This document shows positions 1 to 7,832 of a stretch of DNA of 8,449 bases, in pieces. Each line of letters opens with the position of its first letter. Position 1 is the first letter of the stretch. This DNA comes from a virus (lineage: Duplodnaviria > Heunggongvirae > Uroviricota > Caudoviricetes). Position numbers and translations under genes: made by a program. The stretch lies in IMG/VR virus record IMGVR_UViG_2617270967_000016, positions 1 to 8,449 of that record, one strand, 5' to 3'. Under the pieces are notes generated by a model, which was not told the origin of the DNA, did no database searches, and saw only the letters and a list, made by a program, of their open reading frames with translations.

Positions 1-291
1 ATGGCTGATTTGAGAAAAGCAGCGCGTGGTCGGGAATGCCAGGTAAGAATCCCTGGCGTATGTAATGGCAACCCTGAAACGTCTGTACTGGCACATATCC
101 GGCTGACTGGATTGTGCGGCACCGGTACGAAACCGCCAGACCTGATTGCCACCATTGCATGTTCTGCCTGCCACGACGAAATCGACCGCCGCACGTATTT
201 TGTTGACGCTGGATATGCAAAAGAATGCGCGCTGGAAGGTATGGCGAGAACGCAGGTTATCTGGCTGAAAGAGGGGGTAATTAAGGCGTGA
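1..291 (+). CDS. ybcO: Cys-rich DUF1364-type putative nuclease (YbcO-like), nin-region protein
   Basis: Complete 96-aa ORF starting at ATG 1; sequence recalled as near-identical to DLP12 YbcO ([19 protein letters not shown]...); CxxC-type Cys clusters; stop overlaps the next start. Confidence 0.8.
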
Positions 292-650
292 ATACTTACC
301 ACATCACACTACCCTGGCCGCCGAGCAATAACCGCTACTACCGCCATAATCGAGGGCGCACGCACATCAGCGCAGAAGGGCAGGCATACCGCGATAACGT
401 CGCCCGAATCATTAAAGGCTCAATGCTGGATATCGGTCTGGCTATGCCTGTGAAAATCCGCATTGAGTGCCACATGCCGGATCGCCGTCGCCGTGACCTG
501 GATAATCTGCAAAAAGCCGCTTTTGACGCACTCACTAAAGCAGGTTTCTGGCTGGATGATGAGCTGGTCGTTGATTACCGCGTTGTGAAGATGCCTGTTA
601 CCAAAGGTGGGAAGCTGGAACTGACCATCACTGAACTGGGAGATGAATGA
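288..650 (+). CDS. rusA: Holliday junction resolvase RusA
   Basis: 120-aa ORF with GTG start overlapping the ybcO stop (GTGA); sequence recalled as RusA ([17 protein letters not shown]...[35 protein letters not shown]); expected position after ybcO. Confidence 0.88.
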
Positions 651-787: not shown

Positions 788-872
788 AGTCAGAGATAAC
801 AATCAACTAATACTGTTTTGTTGATTTTTGCTTGTAATTGGCGTTCTGGTCTGATTTTTGTGGAGTAAGTTG

Positions 873-1253
873 ATGCGTGATATTCAGATGGTTCTTGAGC
901 GTTGGGGAGCGTGGGCTGCAAGTGGTAACACCGGGGTGGACTATTCTCCGATCGCTGCCGGATTCAAAGGACTTTTACCATCTGCCACTAAACCACGTCC
1001 GGCCTGCTGCGATGATGACGGACTTATCATTGAAAACTGTCTTGCTCGTCTGAAGCAGAAAAAACCTGAGGAGTATTCGCTTCTCATTGCTCATTATTTG
1101 TTGCGAATATCAAAAAGACAGATAGCCAGGACGAGAAAGAAAAGCGAAAAAGCAATACGAATTGAGATGCAGATAGCCGAAGGGTTTATTGACGGATGTT
1201 TGTCTGTGCTGGGGGTAAGACTGGAGATGGACGACTGGCTGCTAAAAAAGTAA
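873..1253 (+). CDS. late-gene antiterminator Q (QuuD-like family)
   Basis: ATG at 873 preceded by GGAG at 862-865; N-terminus MRDIQMVLERWGAWAA... matches recalled Q/QuuD-type antiterminators; sits between nin genes and a strong terminator. The track start at 858 is a TTG extension. Confidence 0.8.
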   Translation: MRDIQMVLERWGAWAASGNTGVDYSPIAAGFKGLLPSATKPRPACCDDDGLIIENCLARLKQKKPEEYSLLIAHYLLRISKRQIARTRKKSEKAIRIEMQIAEGFIDGCLSVLGVRLEMDDWLLKK

Positions 1254-1322
1254 AAAATGATTAGTGCGGTCCGCAAAAAGTATGTCAGTATGTTAAGAGT
1301 GGTTACTTCGCCACACAGCTTA
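1254..1322 (+). promoter_or_regulatory. expected location of late promoter PR' and qut site
   Basis: By lambdoid architecture PR'/qut lie between the Q stop and tR'; I could not pick convincing -35/-10 hexamers, so this is positional only. Confidence 0.3.
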
Positions 1323-1347
1323 AACCCGCCGCGAGCGGGTTTTTTTA
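1323..1347 (+). terminator. rho-independent terminator (tR'-like)
   Basis: GC-rich hairpin cccgccgcgagcggg (1324-1339) followed by T7 (1340-1346). Confidence 0.6.
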
Positions 1348-1468
1348 TGGCTGAAATCGGTCCAGTACAGTAAACGTGCTGGTGGCGGTGAATACCTGTC
1401 TTTCAGCTTGCTGGCTTTTTCGACAAGAGTTATTGGTGTGTCACGTTAACCGGAAAAGGGAAAAAGAC

Positions 1469-1666
1469 ATGCTAAAACAGCAGGATATGACAGAAACCGC
1501 CAGAGTGGTGTTTAATGAATTAAGCGTTAACGACCCGGCGACAGTCGGGGAGATTGCGCAGAATACTTACCTTTCACGCGAACGCTGCCAGTTAATACTG
1601 ACCCAGCTGGTTATGGCGGGTCTGGCAGACTATCAGTTCGGTTGTTACAGACGCCTTCCGCAGTGA
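1469..1666 (+). CDS. small winged-helix protein, PapI/FaeA-like (65 aa), function unknown
   Basis: ATG 1469 with AAGGGA about 7 nt upstream; ...TVGEIAQNTYLSRERCQLILTQLVMAGLADY resembles the recognition helix/wing pattern of PapI/FaeA regulators (from memory); stop lies inside a terminator hairpin. Confidence 0.5.
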   Translation: MLKQQDMTETARVVFNELSVNDPATVGEIAQNTYLSRERCQLILTQLVMAGLADYQFGCYRRLPQ

Positions 1667-1680
1667 AGGCTTTTTTATTT
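1653..1680 (+). terminator. rho-independent terminator after the small wHTH ORF
   Basis: Stem gccttc (1653-1658) / gaaggc (1665-1670), 6-nt loop, then TTTTTTATTT (1671-1680). Confidence 0.5.
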
Positions 1681-1693
1681 GTGGTAAATGGGC

Positions 1694-1724
1694 GGCTGGT
1701 GGGTGTTAGGGGCACCCACCAGCC
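1694..1724. repeat. perfect 12-bp inverted repeat (hairpin or palindromic binding site)
   Basis: ggctggtgggtg (1694-1705), loop ttagggg, cacccaccagcc (1713-1724); no following T-tract, so not a classic terminator. Confidence 0.5.
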
Positions 1725-1816
1725 ATCTGCTCATGCGTTGGGTTCACAAGCAAACCTCAGGCCCACTGCTTTGCGCAAAAGCAGAATGAGCCTATCAGAG
1801 ACAGGCTTAATGTTCC

Positions 1817-2866
1817 ATGCTTAATACTGTAAAAATATCCAGTTGTGAGTTAATCAACGCCGACTGCCTGGAATTTATCCGGTCGTTACCCGAAAATTCT
1901 GTTGACCTGATAGTCACGGACCCGCCGTACTTTAAAGTGAAGCCTGAGGGCTGGGATAACCAGTGGAAGGGCGACGATGATTACCTGAAGTGGCTGGAGC
2001 AGTGTCTGGCGCAGTTCTGGCGGGGGCTGAAACCTGCCGGAAGTCTTTACCTGTTCTGTGGTCATCGCCTGGCATCTGATATCGAAATCATGATGCGTGA
2101 ACGCTTCAGTGTGCTGAACCATATTATCTGGGCGAAGCCGTCCGGACGCTGGAACGGATGCAACAAGGAAAGCCTGCGGGCGTATTCCCCCGCCACAGAG
2201 CGCATTCTGTTCGCGGAACATTATCAGGGGCCGTACCGCCCGAAAGATGATGGCTATGAGGCGAAGGGCAGGGTACTGAAACAGCATGTGATGGCCCCGC
2301 TGATTGCTTACTTTCGTGATGCGCGAGCTGCCCTGGGGATAACGGCAAAACAGATTGCAGATGCCACAGGAAAGAAAAACATGGTGTCGCACTGGTTCAG
2401 TGCCAGTCAGTGGCAGCTACCGAACGAAAGCGATTATCTGAAATTACAGTCGCTGTTTGCCCGGGTGGCAGAAGAGAAACATCAGCGCGGTGAACTGGAA
2501 AAGCCCCACCACCAGCTGGTGGATACGTATACGTCACTGAACCGGCAGTATGTGGAGCTGCATAGTGAATATAAGCATCTGCGGCGGTATTTTGGTGTGA
2601 CGGCGCAGGTGCCGTACACGGATGTGTGGACACATAAACCGGTGCAGTTCTATCCCGGGAAACATCCGTGCGAAAAACCGGCAGAAATGCTGCAGCAGAT
2701 AATCAGCGCGAGCAGTCGTCCGGGTGACCTGGTTGCAGATTTTTTTATGGGCTCAGGTTCAACGGTAAAAGCGGCACTGGCGCTCGGGCGTCGTGCGATT
2801 GGCGTTGAACTGGAGACCGGACGTTTTGAGCAGACAGTCAGGGAAGTTCAGGATTTAATCGTTTGA
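1817..2866 (+). CDS. orphan beta-class DNA amino-methyltransferase (N6-adenine or N4-cytosine)
   Basis: 349-aa ORF; motif IV DPPY near the N-terminus (LIVTDPPYF) and motif I FxGxG near the C-terminus (DFFMGSGST), the beta-class order; no adjacent restriction endonuclease ORF. Confidence 0.85.
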   Translation: MLNTVKISSCELINADCLEFIRSLPENSVDLIVTDPPYFKVKPEGWDNQWKGDDDYLKWLEQCLAQFWRGLKPAGSLYLFCGHRLASDIEIMMRERFSVLNHIIWAKPSGRWNGCNKESLRAYSPATERILFAEHYQGPYRPKDDGYEAKGRVLKQHVMAPLIAYFRDARAALGITAKQIADATGKKNMVSHWFSASQWQLPNESDYLKLQSLFARVAEEKHQRGELEKPHHQLVDTYTSLNRQYVELHSEYKHLRRYFGVTAQVPYTDVWTHKPVQFYPGKHPCEKPAEMLQQIISASSRPGDLVADFFMGSGSTVKAALALGRRAIGVELETGRFEQTVREVQDLIV

Positions 2867-2878
2867 AACGGATGAGAT

Positions 2879-2907
2879 TGCAGAATTAATTACGCACCAT
2901 TATTATT
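2879..2907 (+). promoter_or_regulatory. candidate sigma70 promoter for the tRNA cluster
   Basis: -35 TTGCAG (2879-2884), 17-bp spacer, -10 TATTAT (2902-2907); predicted start falls within a few nt of the first tRNA 5' end. Confidence 0.4.
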
Positions 2908-2915
2908 CTGCTCCC

Positions 2916-2991
2916 GGCCCTTTAGCTCAGTGGTGAGAGCGAGCGACTCATAATCGCCAGGTCGCTGGTTCAAATCCAGCAAGGGCCACCA
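2916..2991 (+). tRNA. ileZ: tRNA-Ile2 (anticodon CAU; would score as Met by anticodon alone)
   Basis: 76-nt cloverleaf: acceptor GGCCCTT/AAGGGCC, D-arm GCTC...GAGC, anticodon loop CTCATAA, T-loop TTCAAAT, encoded CCA; resembles E. coli ileX and Stx-phage ileZ. Confidence 0.8.
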
Positions 2992-2998
2992 TCACATA

Positions 2999-3075
2999 CC
3001 GCCATTAGCTCATCAGGAAAGAGCGCCAGCCTTCGAAGCTGGTTGCGCGGAGTTCGGGTCCCCGAAGGCGGTTCA
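2999..3075 (+). tRNA. argN: tRNA-Arg (UCG)-like, degenerate (possible pseudo-tRNA)
   Basis: D-arm GCTC/GAGC and anticodon arm CCAGC-CTTCGAA-GCTGG fold well, but the acceptor and T stems each carry a mismatch, the T-loop is TTCGGGT (no A58), and the 3' end is TCA not CCA. Confidence 0.45.
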
Positions 3076-3088
3076 TTATCTGTATCCT

Positions 3089-3165
3089 GCGTTGTTAGCT
3101 CAGCCGGACAGAGCAATTGCCTTCTAAGCAATCGGTCACTGGTTCGAATCCAGTACAACGCGCCA
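3089..3165 (+). tRNA. argO: tRNA-Arg (anticodon UCU, reads AGA/AGG)
   Basis: 77-nt cloverleaf: acceptor GCGTTGT/ACAACGC, anticodon arm ATTGC-CTTCTAA-GCAAT, T-arm ACTGG-TTCGAAT-CCAGT, discriminator G, encoded CCA. Confidence 0.8.
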
Positions 3166-3179
3166 CACTTATTTTCCCT

Positions 3180-3205
3180 GGCTCGCTTTTGCGGGCCTTT
3201 TTTTT
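3180..3205 (+). terminator. rho-independent terminator after the tRNA cluster
   Basis: Stem ggctcgc (3180-3186) / gcgggcc (3191-3197) with one G-U pair, loop tttt, then T8 (3198-3205). Confidence 0.6.
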
Positions 3206-3402
3206 AAATGTCTCACAATTCAGACGGTTGACAGTTGTCTGTTTTGCGGGGAGTTTGTTAAAAGAAACTGGCATGGTGAATCCCCCTGTGCGGAGGGGCA
3301 ATCAGCGAGTAGGTATATGGGATAATCGCGGATTCAGGTGCTGGTACTGAATTCACCGGGAGGCACCCGGCACCATGCAATGGCACATAGCGCCACTCTC
3401 CA

Positions 3403-3426
3403 GCCCCTCTCCGGAGGGGCTTTCTT
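3403..3426 (+). terminator. rho-independent terminator-like hairpin
   Basis: gcccctc (3403-3409), loop tccg, gaggggc (3414-3420), then TTTCTT. Confidence 0.45.
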
Positions 3427-3430
3427 ATGG

Positions 3431-3460
3431 ACAAAAAAGCCCGCGCAGGGAGACGCGGGC
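3431..3460 (-). terminator. minus-strand terminator-like hairpin (convergent with 3403-3426)
   Basis: gcccgcg (3439-3445) / cgcgggc (3454-3460), 8-nt loop; A6 at 3433-3438 on + gives a U-tract after the hairpin on the minus strand. Confidence 0.4.
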
Positions 3461-3653
3461 GGCAAGGAATAAACAACAAAACGTGAAGTAATATTTCAGC
3501 TGGCGAATAATATCCGACAGTAATCACTCTGCGCAATAGTGCGGCCTTTTTCGTATTGCGGGCTGTTGTCTCTCTTCTGCCATTGTCCTGTAACTTCCGG
3601 ACTTCAGCCCGCTCCTCATTTTACTCACAATATTATCCCGGCCGGGAGGATTC

Positions 3654-3947
3654 ATGGCATTTAAACACTATGATGTTGTCAGGGCGGCGTCGCCGTCAGA
3701 CCTTGCGGAAAAGCTGACACACAAACTGAAAGAGGGCTGGCAGCCATATGGCGGACCGGTTGCCATTACGCCGTACACACTGATGCAGGCGGTGGCTATT
3801 GAAGGAGATCCACAGGTCGGCCCTTCATCTGAGCCGGACTGGTTCTACGTGGTTGTGCTTGCCGGACAGTCCAACGGCATGGCCTACGGTGAAGGGCTTC
3901 CGTTATGGCTGCATTCAGGATGCGGACGCACAGCGCGAAGGTATTAA
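3654..3947 (+). pseudogene. 5' fragment of a NanS-p-like sialate O-acetylesterase (N-terminal domain plus start of SGNH/SASA domain); homology ends near 3902
   Basis: ATG 3654 with GGGAGG RBS; about 70-aa N-terminal domain then VVVLAGQSNGMAYGEG, a block-I GQSN motif; the ORF then reads out of frame through capsid-gene sequence to a stop at 3947. Confidence 0.55.
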
Positions 3948-4077
3948 CGCCTCTGCCCGCTACCCGAAAAACTGGGTGACCACCGGCGATCCGGCGCGTG
4001 AGTTCACCATGATTCAGTCAGCACCGCTGATGCTGCTGGCTGATCCTGATGCGTTCGTGTCCGTACAACTGGCGTAA
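3901..4077 (+). pseudogene. E: 3' remnant of major capsid protein gene E (last 57 codons)
   Basis: Translation YGCIQDADAQREGINASARYPKNWVTTGDPAREFTMIQSAPLMLLADPDAFVSVQLA matches the recalled lambda gpE C-terminus almost exactly; no upstream E sequence; different frame from the esterase fragment. Confidence 0.8.
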
Positions 4078-4525: not shown

Positions 4526-4996
4526 GTGGCTGATTTCGATAACCTGTTCGATGCTGCCATTGCCCGCGCCGATGAAACGATACGCGGGTACATGGGAACG
4601 TCAGCCACCATGACATCCGGTGAGCAGTCCGGCGCAGTAATACGTGGTGTTTTTGATGACCCTGAAAATATCAGCTATGCCGGACAGGGCGTGCGCGTTG
4701 AAGGCTCCAGCCCGTCCCTGTTTGTCCGGACTGATGATGTGCGGCAACTGCGGCGTGGAGACACGCTGACCATCGGTGAGGAAAACTTCTGGATAGACCG
4801 GGTTTCGCCGGATGATGGTGGAAGCTGTTATCTCTGGCTCAACCGTGGGCAACCACGGGGATTTACAACGATTTGGCCGCCGCCTCAGCCTGTATGTGAA
4901 CACGGCAGCGGAAGCCATTCGCGCCCTGTCGATGCAGATGCCGGGCTTTCGCCTTCAGATGAACGAAGGCTGGTACCAGATACGTATTGCCGGTGA
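4526..4996 (+). CDS. FII: head-tail joining protein FII with its C-terminus replaced by read-through into the I region (disrupted)
   Basis: GGGAGG RBS; first about 105 aa match recalled lambda gpFII (MADFDNLFDAAIARADETIRGYMGTSAT...SPDDGGSC.LWL); after about 4850 the frame continues out of frame through I-homologous DNA to 4996. Confidence 0.7.
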   Translation: MADFDNLFDAAIARADETIRGYMGTSATMTSGEQSGAVIRGVFDDPENISYAGQGVRVEGSSPSLFVRTDDVRQLRRGDTLTIGEENFWIDRVSPDDGGSCYLWLNRGQPRGFTTIWPPPQPVCEHGSGSHSRPVDADAGLSPSDERRLVPDTYCR

Positions 4997-5477: not shown

Positions 5478-5482
5478 AAAGA

Positions 5483-5581
5483 ATAAAAAAATCCCGCAGT
5501 GATCGCGGACAGGAACTGCGGGAGAGTTACGAAGATTAAGTGTAAGGAATTATTCTTATATCACGACAAAAAAATTAACGC
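5483..5581 (-). ncRNA. candidate small RNA (about 100 nt) between I and J
   Basis: Delimited on the minus strand by a near-consensus promoter (5588-5615) and a hairpin plus U-tract terminator (5486-5520); no start-codon-initiated ORF inside; this intergenic block is absent between I and J in lambda. Confidence 0.3.
5486..5520 (-). terminator. minus-strand rho-independent terminator
   Basis: tcccgcag (5491-5498) / ctgcggga (5513-5520), 14-nt loop; on the minus strand followed by ATTTTTTTATTCTTTTT. Confidence 0.45.
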
Positions 5582-5587
5582 AGAGAA

Positions 5588-5615
5588 ATTATACGCGCCA
5601 CGGTCAGTTTGTGAA
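5588..5615 (-). promoter_or_regulatory. sigma70-type promoter on the minus strand
   Basis: Minus-strand -35 TTCACA (+ coords 5610-5615), 16-bp spacer, -10 TATAAT (+ coords 5588-5593, perfect); AT-rich upstream; predicted start near 5581. Confidence 0.45.
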
Positions 5616-5690
5616 AATGTGAAGATATTCAGAATTTTTATGCCATTACCGGTTTTAACCAACAGGATTATCGGTGGGCATGAAAGAAAA

Positions 5691-5723
5691 CCCCGGTATC
5701 TGCTGATACCGGGGTTTCTCTTT
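5691..5723. terminator. bidirectional rho-independent terminator
   Basis: Perfect 10-bp stem ccccggtatc (5691-5700) / gataccgggg (5705-5714), loop tgct; TTTCTCTTT downstream and GAAAGAAAA upstream. Confidence 0.6.
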
Positions 5724-5820
5724 AGCATGGCAGAAATGTGTTTCATGCTTTTCGGGCGAAGGATATCCGACTTCTGTACGGAATGGCAAGTGGCGGTTAA
5801 TTTATTCAGGGGAAGGCTGT

Positions 5821-6621
5821 ATGGGAAAAGGTGGCGGTAAGGCACACACGCCTCGTGAGGCGAAAGACAATCTCAAATCCACGCAGATGATGAGCGTGAT
5901 TGATGCGATTGGTGAGGGACCGATAGAAGGCCCGGTGAAAAGCCTGCAGAGTATTCTGGTGAACAAAACCCCGCTGACGGACACGGACGGTAATCCCGTG
6001 ATACACGGTGTGACCGCGGTCTGGCGTGCCGGGGAGCAGGAGCAGACACCACCGGAAGGCTTTGAGTCCTCCGGCTCTGAAACTGTACTGGGTGTCGAAG
6101 TGACCAGGGCAAAACCGGTAACACGCACCATTACGTCAGCGAACATTGACCGCCTGCGGGTGACCTTCGGGGTGCAGTCACTGGTGGAGACCACGTCAAA
6201 GGGTGACCGTAATCCGTCCTCTGTCCGTCTGCTGATTCAGTTACAGCGTAACGGTAACTGGGTGACAGAAAAGGATGTCACCATTAACGGCAAGACCACC
6301 TCACAGTTCCTGGCCTCGGTGATTCTGGATAATCTGCCTCCCCGCCCCTTTAACATCCGGATGGTCAGGGAGACGGCGGACAGCACCACGGACCAGCTGC
6401 AGAACAGAACGCTGTGGTCGTCATACACCGAAATCATCGATGTGAAACAGTGCTACCCGAACACGGCCATTGTGGGGATGCAGGTGGATGCGGAGCAGTT
6501 TGGTGGTCAGCAGATGACGGTGAACTACCATAGCCAGGTAACACAGAGTTATGACAGCCCGCCGGTTCTGGTGGGCTTTTTTGTGGGGGGAATATGTCAG
6601 TACAGATTTCAGGTGTGCTGA
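5821..6621 (+). pseudogene. J: tail tip/host-specificity protein J, N-terminal about 238 codons only
   Basis: RBS AGGGGAAGG; MGKGGGKAHTPREAKDNLKSTQ...PPRPFNIRM...TLWSSYTEIIDVKQCYPNTA matches the recalled lambda gpJ N-terminus; homology ends near 6533 and the ORF stops at 6621; full J is over 1100 aa. Confidence 0.8.
6557..6582 (+). terminator. terminator-like hairpin immediately upstream of the stf start
   Basis: gcccgcc (6557-6563) / ggtgggc (6570-6576) with one G-U pair, loop ggttct, then T6 (6577-6582). Confidence 0.4.
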
Positions 6622-7832
6622 AGGATGGTACAGGAAAACCGGTACCGGACTGCACCATAGAGCTGAAAGCCACGCGAACGAGTGAGACGGTGATAGTCAC
6701 CACGGTGGCAGAGCACCAGCCAGGCGAAACGGGCAGTTACAGCATGCAGGTTGAGCCGGGGCGTTATCGTGTGACCTTGTGCGTGGAAGGTCGTCAGCCG
6801 GCATGCGCCGGCGAGATTGATGTCATGGCCGACGACGAACCGGGCACCCTGAATGCCTTTCTGCTCCGTGAAACGGATGCAGCGTATTATCCTGATGCAC
6901 TGAAGAAGCTGGAAGCGGCGGCGGATGAGGCTGTGCGCAGGGCGCGAGAAGCTGCTGAGAAAGCCGAAACTGCCGTGGGGCCACAGGGACTGAAAGGCGA
7001 CACCGGAGCAACTGGTCCACAGGGACAGAAGGGGGACAAGGGCGATACAGGCCCGGCAGGGCCACCGGGGCCGAAAGGGGATAAAGGTGACAAGGGCGAT
7101 AAGGGGGATACAGGTCCGAAAGGTGAGCAGGGCGATCCGGGCGGACCACAGGGACCGAAGGGCGACAAGGGGGATACAGGCCCGGCAGGGCTTCAGGGGC
7201 CAAAAGGGGATACGGGAGCCGCAGGCCCGGCAGGGCCTCAGGGGCCAAAAGGGGATACGGGAGCCGCAGGTCAGGCAGGGCCTCAGGGGCCAAAAGGAGA
7301 TACGGGAGCCGCAGGTCCGGCAGGACCTCAGGGGCCAAAGGGAGATACGGGAGCTGCAGGCCCGGCAGGACCTCAGGGGCCAAAAGGAGATACGGGAGCC
7401 GCAGGTCCGGCAGGACCTCAGGGGCCAAAGGGAGATACGGGAGCTGCAGGCCCGGCAGGACCACAGGGGCCAAAAGGGGATACGGGAGCCGCAGGTCAGG
7501 CAGGGCCTCAGGGGCCAAAAGGAGATACGGGAGCCGCAGGTCCGGCAGGACCTCAGGGACCGTCAGGAAGTCCTGACAGCGGACTGTTTGGTGTCGGTTC
7601 TTTTGTCCTTGCGGCATATTATGCGACGAGTTATTCGGGGGATATGGCACCGGGCTCAGCCATTGCCGGCTCATCACTGTCTGCATGTTGCCTTTCGAAT
7701 GGTACTCCCCTGGTTGCTTCCGGTAATGTGGGGGAGACCCGTTTACCGGGCACGTGGCGTGCATGTGGTCCGATGCTATGGACATCATCTCCGGGTATCA
7801 GACAGGCAGGATTATTTCAGCGCATATCATAG
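6594..7832 (+). CDS. stf: side tail fibre protein with a collagen-like Gly-X-Y region
   Basis: 412-aa ORF; N-terminus [17 protein letters not shown] resembles recalled lambda Stf ([17 protein letters not shown]...); residues about 129-327 are uninterrupted Gly-X-Y triplets; 85-aa Cys-containing non-collagen C-terminus. Confidence 0.8.
7180..7560 (+). repeat. tandem array of a 45-bp unit (about 8 copies) encoding [15 protein letters not shown]
   Basis: Near-identical 45-bp units with only synonymous or single-residue variation (PAG/QAG); preceded by more degenerate [12 protein letters not shown] triplets from about 6978. Confidence 0.85.

Follow-up and report, generated by a model that had tools for sequence, protein, structure and literature searches.

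The window analyzed here, meaning the whole stretch of 8,449 nt, carries a late antiterminator gene, a DNA methyltransferase gene, three tRNA genes and the beginning of a nanS-p-type esterase gene, which runs into capsid sequence (Table 1). It is 100% identical to positions 162–8610 of JNRW01000053.1, from an E. coli draft assembly (GCA_000704885.1). An initial annotation, made from the letters of the sequence, had described the order Q, tR′, Ile-CAU/Arg/Arg tRNAs and a NanS-p-like start. ORF calls, Pfam, ARAGORN, Rfam and a terminator scan find every one of these elements, but a methyltransferase gene that went unmentioned lies between tR′ and the tRNAs. The tR′-like terminator begins 69 nt past the end of Q, at the same place relative to Q as the annotated tR′ of phage Nil3, and probably has the role of tR′. 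The tRNA genes with anticodons CAU, UCG and UCU are adjacent and lie downstream of Q, as in the ileZ-argN-argO cluster of phages. The CAU tRNA is labeled tRNA-Ile (ileZ) in RefSeq relatives and is identical in sequence to ileZ2 of Sakai Sp5, and the argO-type tRNA-Arg (UCU) matches Sp5 argO2 at 76 of 77 positions. The terminator that follows the trio is kept in stx-positive and stx-negative relatives alike. Terminator-like sites are frequent around it, with five observed in 2850–3700 versus 0.8 expected from shuffled sequence. Between the tR′-like terminator and the methylase gene, a 65-aa ORF that is annotated in relatives lies within 1376–1816; a longer mechanical ORF over the same region has a weak TrmB-like HTH match (E 0.005).

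Table 1. Genes and other features of the window, with positions counted from its first nucleotide
Feature	Position	Strand	Basis or remark
YbcO	1–291	+	
RusA	288–650	+	
Late antiterminator Q, 126 aa	873–1253	+	Pfam PF06530 (Phage_antitermQ), E 1.6e-52
tR′-like intrinsic terminator	1322–1350 (stem region 1322–1342 + T-run)	+	8-bp stem, 5 G-C pairs
Second terminator, in region of 65-aa ORF	1653–1670	+	
N6/N4 DNA methyltransferase, 349 aa, late operon	1817–2866	+	Pfam PF01555, E 2.2e-44
tRNA, anticodon CAU, ileZ type	2916–2991	+	ARAGORN; Rfam tRNA 72.5 bits
tRNA-Arg (UCG), argN type	2998–3074	+	ARAGORN; Rfam 43.4 bits
tRNA-Arg (UCU), argO type	3089–3165	+	ARAGORN; Rfam 70.1 bits
Post-tRNA intrinsic terminator	stem 3180–3197, T8 3198–3205	+	Terminator scan; left edge of cargo slot
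Cargo (moron) insertion point, empty here	3206–3209	.	Homology break versus Stx2a prophages
STnc100-family sRNA gene (Sp4 EcOnc05 homologue)	3242–3432	+	Rfam RF02076; terminator 3402–3421
Minus-strand sRNA (Sp4 EcOnc08/EcOnc21 homologue)	3433–3597	−	Terminator 3460→3439, U-tail to 3433; probe match
nanS-p-type esterase pseudogene, first 84 codons	3654–3905	+	DUF1737 + start of SASA domain
Deletion junction, then last 174 nt of lambda-type major capsid gene	3904–4077	+	

Backbone type and position of the cargo slot

The initial annotation recognized in this order the late layout of Stx-converting phages, and it took the interval of about 450 bp between the tRNA genes and nanS-p for an empty toxin locus. 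The first of these claims is borne out. Q, tR′, the rare-codon tRNAs and nanS-p are all in place, positions 837–3790 of the window match prophages of E. coli CB6837 and others, and prophages of the CB6837 type carry stx2A and stx2B between a tRNA trio of identical layout and a DUF1737-SASA-DUF6645 esterase gene. Q is identical at 126 of 126 residues to Q of the Stx2a prophage of CB6837 (L005); it is also 126/126 identical in the terB prophage of E. coli FORC_043 (L012) and in the stx-free prophage of strain 700462 (L004). The methylase shares 94%–98% identity with its positional counterparts in these three prophages (94% versus CB6837), and the left flank is 92% identical to the CB6837 prophage.

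The claim that stx is absent also holds. With Stx1A/B and Stx2A/B as queries against the whole window, tblastn gave a best E value of 0.6 and zero matches in the interval, and blastn (word 7) with the stx1AB and stx2AB genes returned chance words only, none of them within the interval. A search for residual stx promoter or 3′ flanking sequence had been proposed together with the initial annotation; blastn-short with the stx promoter and the non-coding 3′ flanks again returned only chance words, none within the interval. Neither stxA nor stxB lies downstream of Q and pR′. Judged by these comparisons, the backbone is of the Stx-phage type and free of toxin.

Where, then, does the toxin sit in relatives? 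The comparison set consisted of three Stx2a prophages, namely those of CB6837 and Sakai Sp5 (L010) and a third, L006. Window 2867–3206 is a 92% match to Stx2a sequence that ends 50 bp before the start of stx2A in the three prophages, and window 3209–3790 matches all three from 42 bp past the stop of stx2B. In the CB6837 prophage, 1,332 bp comprising the stx2 promoter and leader, stx2A, stx2B and the 42-bp tail thus correspond to two bases in the window. Given breakpoints at 3206 and 3209, the toxin cassette is missing at a single point, directly after the tRNA terminator. Stx1 phages show a similar arrangement: window 3271–3653 matches the sequence downstream of stx1B, with 98% identity over 3349–3653, and the stx1 cassette ends at the module start TTAAAT..TCTCAATTCAG. 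At 448 bp, the gap in the window is close in size to the stxB-to-nanS-p spacers of the CB6837 prophage (501 bp), Sp5 (486 bp) and the Stx1 phage (510 bp). On the strength of these alignments, the 448-bp interval is the stxB-to-nanS-p spacer of Stx1 and Stx2 phages and not a vacated toxin site, so the reading of the interval itself as the empty toxin locus was wrong. An end-to-end alignment with phages that carry stx elsewhere had been named as evidence against that reading. The interval does align with stx-positive phages, but stx adjoins it upstream in those phages rather than lying at a distant locus.

The Stx2a prophage of CB6837 and the Sp5/933W-type phages share with the window the order Q, tR′, (methylase), three tRNAs, terminator, STnc100 module and nanS-p. 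They differ from it in carrying the 1,332-bp stx2 cassette at 3206/3209, and the sRNA spacers of Stx2 phages are of a different sequence type, 73%–79% identical to that of the window. If the late operon works as it does in Stx phages, Q-modified transcription from pR′ would pass tR′, the methylase gene, the tRNA genes and whatever occupies the slot.

Two convergent sRNA genes in the interval

In the initial annotation, the interval held only hairpins and a convergent terminator pair. The pair exists, at 3402–3421 on the plus strand and 3460–3439 on the minus strand, but the description missed the sRNA genes to which the two terminators belong as RNA 3′ ends. On the plus strand, an Rfam search finds a full-length match to the STnc100 family (RF02076; model positions 1–206 of 206) that scores 139.2 bits versus a gathering threshold of 47 (E 1.7e-31). 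STnc100, which is also EcOnc27/EcOnc05 and is related to PasD, is among the sRNAs linked to the sialic-acid esterase gene (Zhu, Shabalina & Storz 2026, bioRxiv 10.64898/2026.05.13.724894). The window copy resembles other family members in its full-length match, its prophage site beside a sialic-acid esterase gene and its intrinsic terminator. In the CB6837 prophage, STnc100 lies 75 nt downstream of stx2B, a distance that agrees with its published position in Stx2 phages (PMC12370729). This copy next to stx2 scores 192 bits, whereas the copy in the window scores 139 bits and has a shorter central region. A pairing between STnc100 and stxB has been proposed (PMC12370729); that target is absent from the window.

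The closest published precedent is Sp4 of E. coli O157:H7 Sakai, a stx-free lambda-like prophage (Asadulghani et al. 2009, PMC2669165; Tree et al. 2014, PMC4104026). Convergent sRNAs between a moron CDS and a conserved downstream ORF have been reported in Sp3, 4, 5, 9, 10, 11, 15 and 17 (PMC4104026), and those in the Sp4 gap are EcOnc05 on the plus strand, ~222 nt on northern blots, and EcOnc08/EcOnc21 on the minus strand, ~271 nt (Tree et al. Table S2, PMC4104026). Sp4 shares with the window the ileZ1-argN1-argO1 trio, the terminator, a spacer (489 bp), a NanS-p-type gene and the lack of toxin. The Sp4 gap is 99.2% identical to window 3166–3653, with five differences (substitutions or indels), and identity over window 2899–3905 is 98.5%. 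The two prophages differ elsewhere: Q of Sp4 is just 58/127 identical to Q of the window, Sp4 has a CAAX protease and an AraC-type regulator between Q and the tRNAs where the window has the methylase, and Sp4 retains a full-length esterase (616 aa), lysis genes and most structural genes. The stx-free Q/tRNA/nanS-p layout with its convergent sRNA pair was already described for O157 Sakai between 2009 and 2014.

The published probes place both Sp4 RNAs in the window. Window 3300–3334, read as its reverse complement, is identical to the EcOnc05 northern probe (35/35). The EcOnc08/21/42 probe matches 3507–3541 at 34 of 35 positions and is plus-sense, so that it detects a minus-strand RNA. The Hfq peaks were published in the coordinates of an older Sakai record, which is offset by +136 bp at Sp5; mapping peaks by coordinates alone is unsafe because of this offset, and the probe sequences were used instead. 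At Sp4, the offset is approximately zero, as judged by probe positions and by the fit to the terminators. On this basis, the Sp4 Hfq peaks at 1179938–1180010 and 1180016–1180101 fall at window ~3434–3506 and ~3512–3597 on the minus strand, and the plus-strand Sp4 peak falls at ~3303–3411. Northern and Hfq-CRAC data show the 99.2%-identical Sp4 copy of STnc100 to be a discrete, Hfq-associated RNA; in the source strain of the window, the sRNA pair is presumably expressed.

The conserved module starts at ~3209–3213, and a scan for the sigma-70 consensus upstream of the STnc100 RNA gave no convincing promoter; a TTGACA at 3228–3233 has no good −10 element at 16–18 bp. The length of ~222 nt on northern blots would put the 5′ end of the STnc100 RNA at the cargo boundary (~3207–3218), meaning that it may be processed from a longer transcript rather than transcribed on its own. 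Its fold compares with shuffled sequences at z = −2.09. For the minus-strand RNA, a promoter-like site at 3660→3632 would give a product of ~193 nt, as opposed to the ~271 nt on the published northern blot, and the 5′ end may reach ~3625–3700. The minus-strand RNA belongs to no curated family and folds no better than shuffles (z = −0.86). The anti-sRNAs AsxR and AgvB (RF02703 and RF02702), RNAs of 51–60 nt with a conserved 3′ region of ~42 nt, were considered for the minus strand and rejected, as neither family has an Rfam hit at E ≤ 10 in 3160–3700. Even with up to three mismatches allowed, the window has no AsxR terminator motif, which Sp5 does contain. On the minus strand, the window has an RNA of the EcOnc08/21 type in place of AsxR, the short anti-sRNA of Sp5.

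Taken together, the interval would produce two convergent Hfq-binding RNAs, with STnc100 on the plus strand facing a longer minus-strand RNA that is antisense toward the 5′ region of the esterase gene. Within the minus-strand sRNA region, plus-strand positions 3529–3553 hold a third terminator-like hairpin, weaker than the other two (CTGCGCAATAGTGCGG followed by CCTTTTT). Located ~100 nt before the esterase start, it could attenuate read-through into nanS-p.

Slot alleles and the origin of the empty junction

The slot is occupied in some relatives and empty in others. On the backbone of Q, methylase, tRNAs and esterase, it is empty in the window, in strain 700462 (99.9% identical), in strain 100416, in phage Nil3 and in Sp4. 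The same backbone carries stx2AB in the slot in CB6837, and in FORC_043 it carries terB and DUF3927, a 747-bp insert (L012 3871–4617) at the point where stx2AB sits in relatives. All empty alleles have the same junction, GCGGGCC-T8-AAATGTC-TCACAATTCAG. The terB allele reads GCGGGCC-T6-(cargo)-A4T4-AAATGTC-TCACAATTCAG, a clean indel inside the T-run of the terminator, and retains the empty-type TTTTAAATGTC to the right of the cargo. An alignment with stx-negative lambdoid prophages, which the initial annotation had suggested, shows this identical empty junction in Sp4, Nil3 and strain 700462, all stx-free, with spacers that are 99.2%, 98.9% and 99.9% identical to that of the window, respectively. 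The empty allele is also common. Of 5,426 complete E. coli genomes, 1,017 (about one-fifth) contain an uninterrupted match to a 141-bp probe across the empty junction (window 3150–3290). Further variants occur in the sRNA module. In JKHS016 (L013 3876–4343), STnc100 modules are in tandem, 99% and 84% identical to the module of the window, and the diverged second one starts from the TCACAATTCAG boundary as well. On the minus strand of strains 100416 and 23CRST047, the anti-adapter gene iraM replaces the segment equivalent to window 3422–3652, which holds the minus-strand sRNA (L011 4071–4700; L024, from 23CRST047, record 570155–570490). It is possible that the iraM segment is another variable slot, in which convergent orientation is retained.

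Was the slot never loaded, or was a toxin lost from it? The junctions do not polarize insertion versus deletion: the terB allele is a clean T-run indel and the stx2 repeat matches at 7 of 9 positions, so either direction is possible. A recent loss would mean that a former Stx2 (or Stx1) phage underwent precise deletion of its stx cassette in this lineage. Such a history would account for the match to a genuine Stx2a prophage in Q (identical) and in the methylase (94%). Moreover, ATCTGCGCC / ATCTGTGTC, an imperfect and weak repeat (7/9) on either side of the stx2 cassette, could serve for its deletion, and this prophage has suffered at least three other deletions. However, no remnant of the stx promoter, coding sequence or 3′ flank is left, the junction is base for base that of Sp4, Nil3, strain 700462 and about one-fifth of complete E. 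coli genomes, and the spacers of those Stx2 phages whose left flank matches at 92% are no more than 73%–79% identical to the right flank. In addition, an intact 47-kb sister prophage in 23CRST047, inserted at the same potB/potC site, is likewise empty and aligns unbroken over tR′ and the tRNAs and on into the sRNA module. Since one identical empty junction occurs in the sister prophage and in many genomes, this allele is widespread and was inherited; it is not the product of a new deletion of toxin genes. Because there is no stx remnant, the junction is common, the right flank is of another type and the sister prophage is empty, a recent loss is quite unlikely.

The variety of cargo raises another question, namely whether the boundary is a site made for exchange. 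The cargo types that meet the T-run/TTAAAT boundary are stx1, stx2, terB+DUF3927 and extra sRNA modules, and these four insert types reach the same module start within a few bases. The terB and empty alleles differ by the clean T-run indel with TTTTAAATGTC kept to the right, and RTATCYGCGCC is common to stx2 and terB cargo at their left ends. A specific recombination that swaps stx1, stx2, terB and sRNA modules at a dedicated T-run/TTAAAT site, with the empty allele as an unloaded acceptor, is nevertheless very improbable, given that there is no recombinase, no inverted repeat and no convincing target-site duplication, that the repeats are just 4–9 bp long and imperfect, and that homologous recombination between the conserved tRNA block and the sRNA/esterase block accounts for the swaps equally well. 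A related proposal is that the T-run / TTAAAT..TCACAATTCAG boundary is a discrete cassette-exchange site, that the STnc100 RNA is a processed 3′ product of the cargo transcript and that the empty allele is an unloaded acceptor. This combination is unlikely; if its processing component were true, sRNA output would be tied to cargo expression. Could the interval instead encode a small protein, such as a 92-aa minus-strand ORF or the ORFs of phage records, and no RNAs? The initial annotation had reported no ORF of stxA or stxB size. There is indeed no stx, but a mechanical 92-aa ORF of about StxB size does exist on the minus strand at 3258–3536, overlapping both sRNAs, and some records call “hypothetical protein” CDSs over the homologous stretch. 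Against coding, a Pfam search of the interval ORFs, including this one, gave no match at E ≤ 1, the ORF starts with TTG, crosses both intrinsic terminators and is antisense to a 139-bit Rfam sRNA, RefSeq marks the fragment as incomplete or pseudo, and the northern-validated sRNAs of Sp4 map to this very stretch. A protein in place of the RNAs is hardly credible. The minus-strand stretch 3261–3386 (L004 8422–8547) is annotated as an “incomplete hypothetical protein” by RefSeq in relatives, and older phage records have ORFs there, such as b70; being antisense to the STnc100 sRNA and lacking a family match, this CDS call is probably spurious.

The explanation we favor, with a probability of roughly 85% overall, combines a spacer, an empty slot and convergent sRNAs. 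Window 3206–3653 would be the standard spacer that leads from the moron slot of the late operon to nanS-p, and the slot would be unoccupied. In toxin-converting relatives, the stx promoter and stxAB occupy one point between the terminator of the tRNA trio and the sRNA module; other relatives carry terB+DUF3927 there, and many are empty, for example Sakai Sp4.

What are the implications of the empty slot? By itself, the finding has little significance, since the empty junction occurs in about one-fifth of complete E. coli genomes, and everything described here fits published stx-free lambdoid prophages (PMC2669165, PMC4104026, PMC10462455, PMC8065619). The main use is in annotation. Annotators who meet a gap of ~450–490 bp between the tRNAs and nanS-p should treat it as an sRNA module, with a cargo slot that is a single point on the 5′ side, and not as the scar of a lost toxin; “hypothetical protein” CDSs called within it are probably spurious. 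Comparison of the alleles (empty, stx2, stx1, terB, duplicated module and iraM) also provides a compact map of cargo exchange for this phage family.

Decay of the esterase gene and the prophage

The gene downstream of the interval had been described as NanS-p-like, and a gene of another kind would have spoken against the Stx-phage layout. Its NanS-p-type start is confirmed, but only as an 84-codon fragment. DUF1737 (PF08410), the N-terminal domain of NanS-p, is found at residues 3–49 (E 7.2e-17), and the 84 codons are all identical (84/84) to the start of an intact 618-aa esterase in strain 700462. That esterase has the domains DUF1737, SASA and DUF6645 and is 54% identical to Sp5 NanS-p. In common with the NanS-p esterases 933W L0105 and Sp5 ECs_1207 (PMC10462455, PMC8065619), the window has DUF1737 and a GQSNG block. 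It differs from them in retaining codons 1–84 only, fused out of frame to capsid sequence, and hence has no catalytic or C-terminal domain. Pfam does not find SASA (PF03629) or DUF6645 in the 97-aa ORF of the window, and both are present in the intact alleles of strain 700462, Sp5 and L008. Homology to the esterase stops at 3904/3905, where the gene is joined to the capsid tail through a 2-bp TA microhomology. The resulting chimeric esterase/capsid ORF extends over 3654–3947. No called gene equivalent to this 97-aa ORF was found, and the exact esterase/capsid junction was not found in a collection of species-representative genomes.

This junction is one of three in-order deletions, totaling ~23 kb, that separate the window from the sister prophage of 23CRST047. 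The first, of ~12.3 kb, removed the rest of the esterase gene, the lysis, terminase, portal, protease and decoration protein genes and most of the capsid gene. The second, of ~7.0 kb, removed tail genes and joined the 3′ end of FII to the 3′ end of K and I at ~4839–4856, creating a chimeric 156-aa ORF at 4526–4996. The third, of ~3.4 kb and including lom, joined J, ~240 codons in, to the N-terminus of the tail fibre at ~6531–6590. Both tail deletions are common to at least seven draft assemblies that keep the head module, which makes the esterase-to-capsid deletion the most recent. With holin, endolysin, terminase, portal, most of the capsid gene and tail genes Z to K missing, neither the lysis nor the morphogenesis modules needed to form particles are complete. 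Beyond the window, JNRW01000053.1 runs on into potB, potA, pepT, roxA and phoQ, and the whole remnant was not found in any complete E. coli genome. This copy sits in a dead prophage remnant beside potB, whose late region has been reduced to its regulatory and RNA cargo part.

Two features of the tail region can be added. The tail-fibre ORF at 6594–7832 has a collagen-like Gly-X-Y region made of 45-bp DNA repeats (~7014–7558), and its length differs among assemblies, at 397, 412, 427 or 442 aa. No gene is called in the 343-bp intergenic stretch between I and J (5478–5820), which 1,445 complete E. coli genomes conserve; a strong hairpin, AAAACCCCGGTATC..GATACCGGGGTTT, lies within it.
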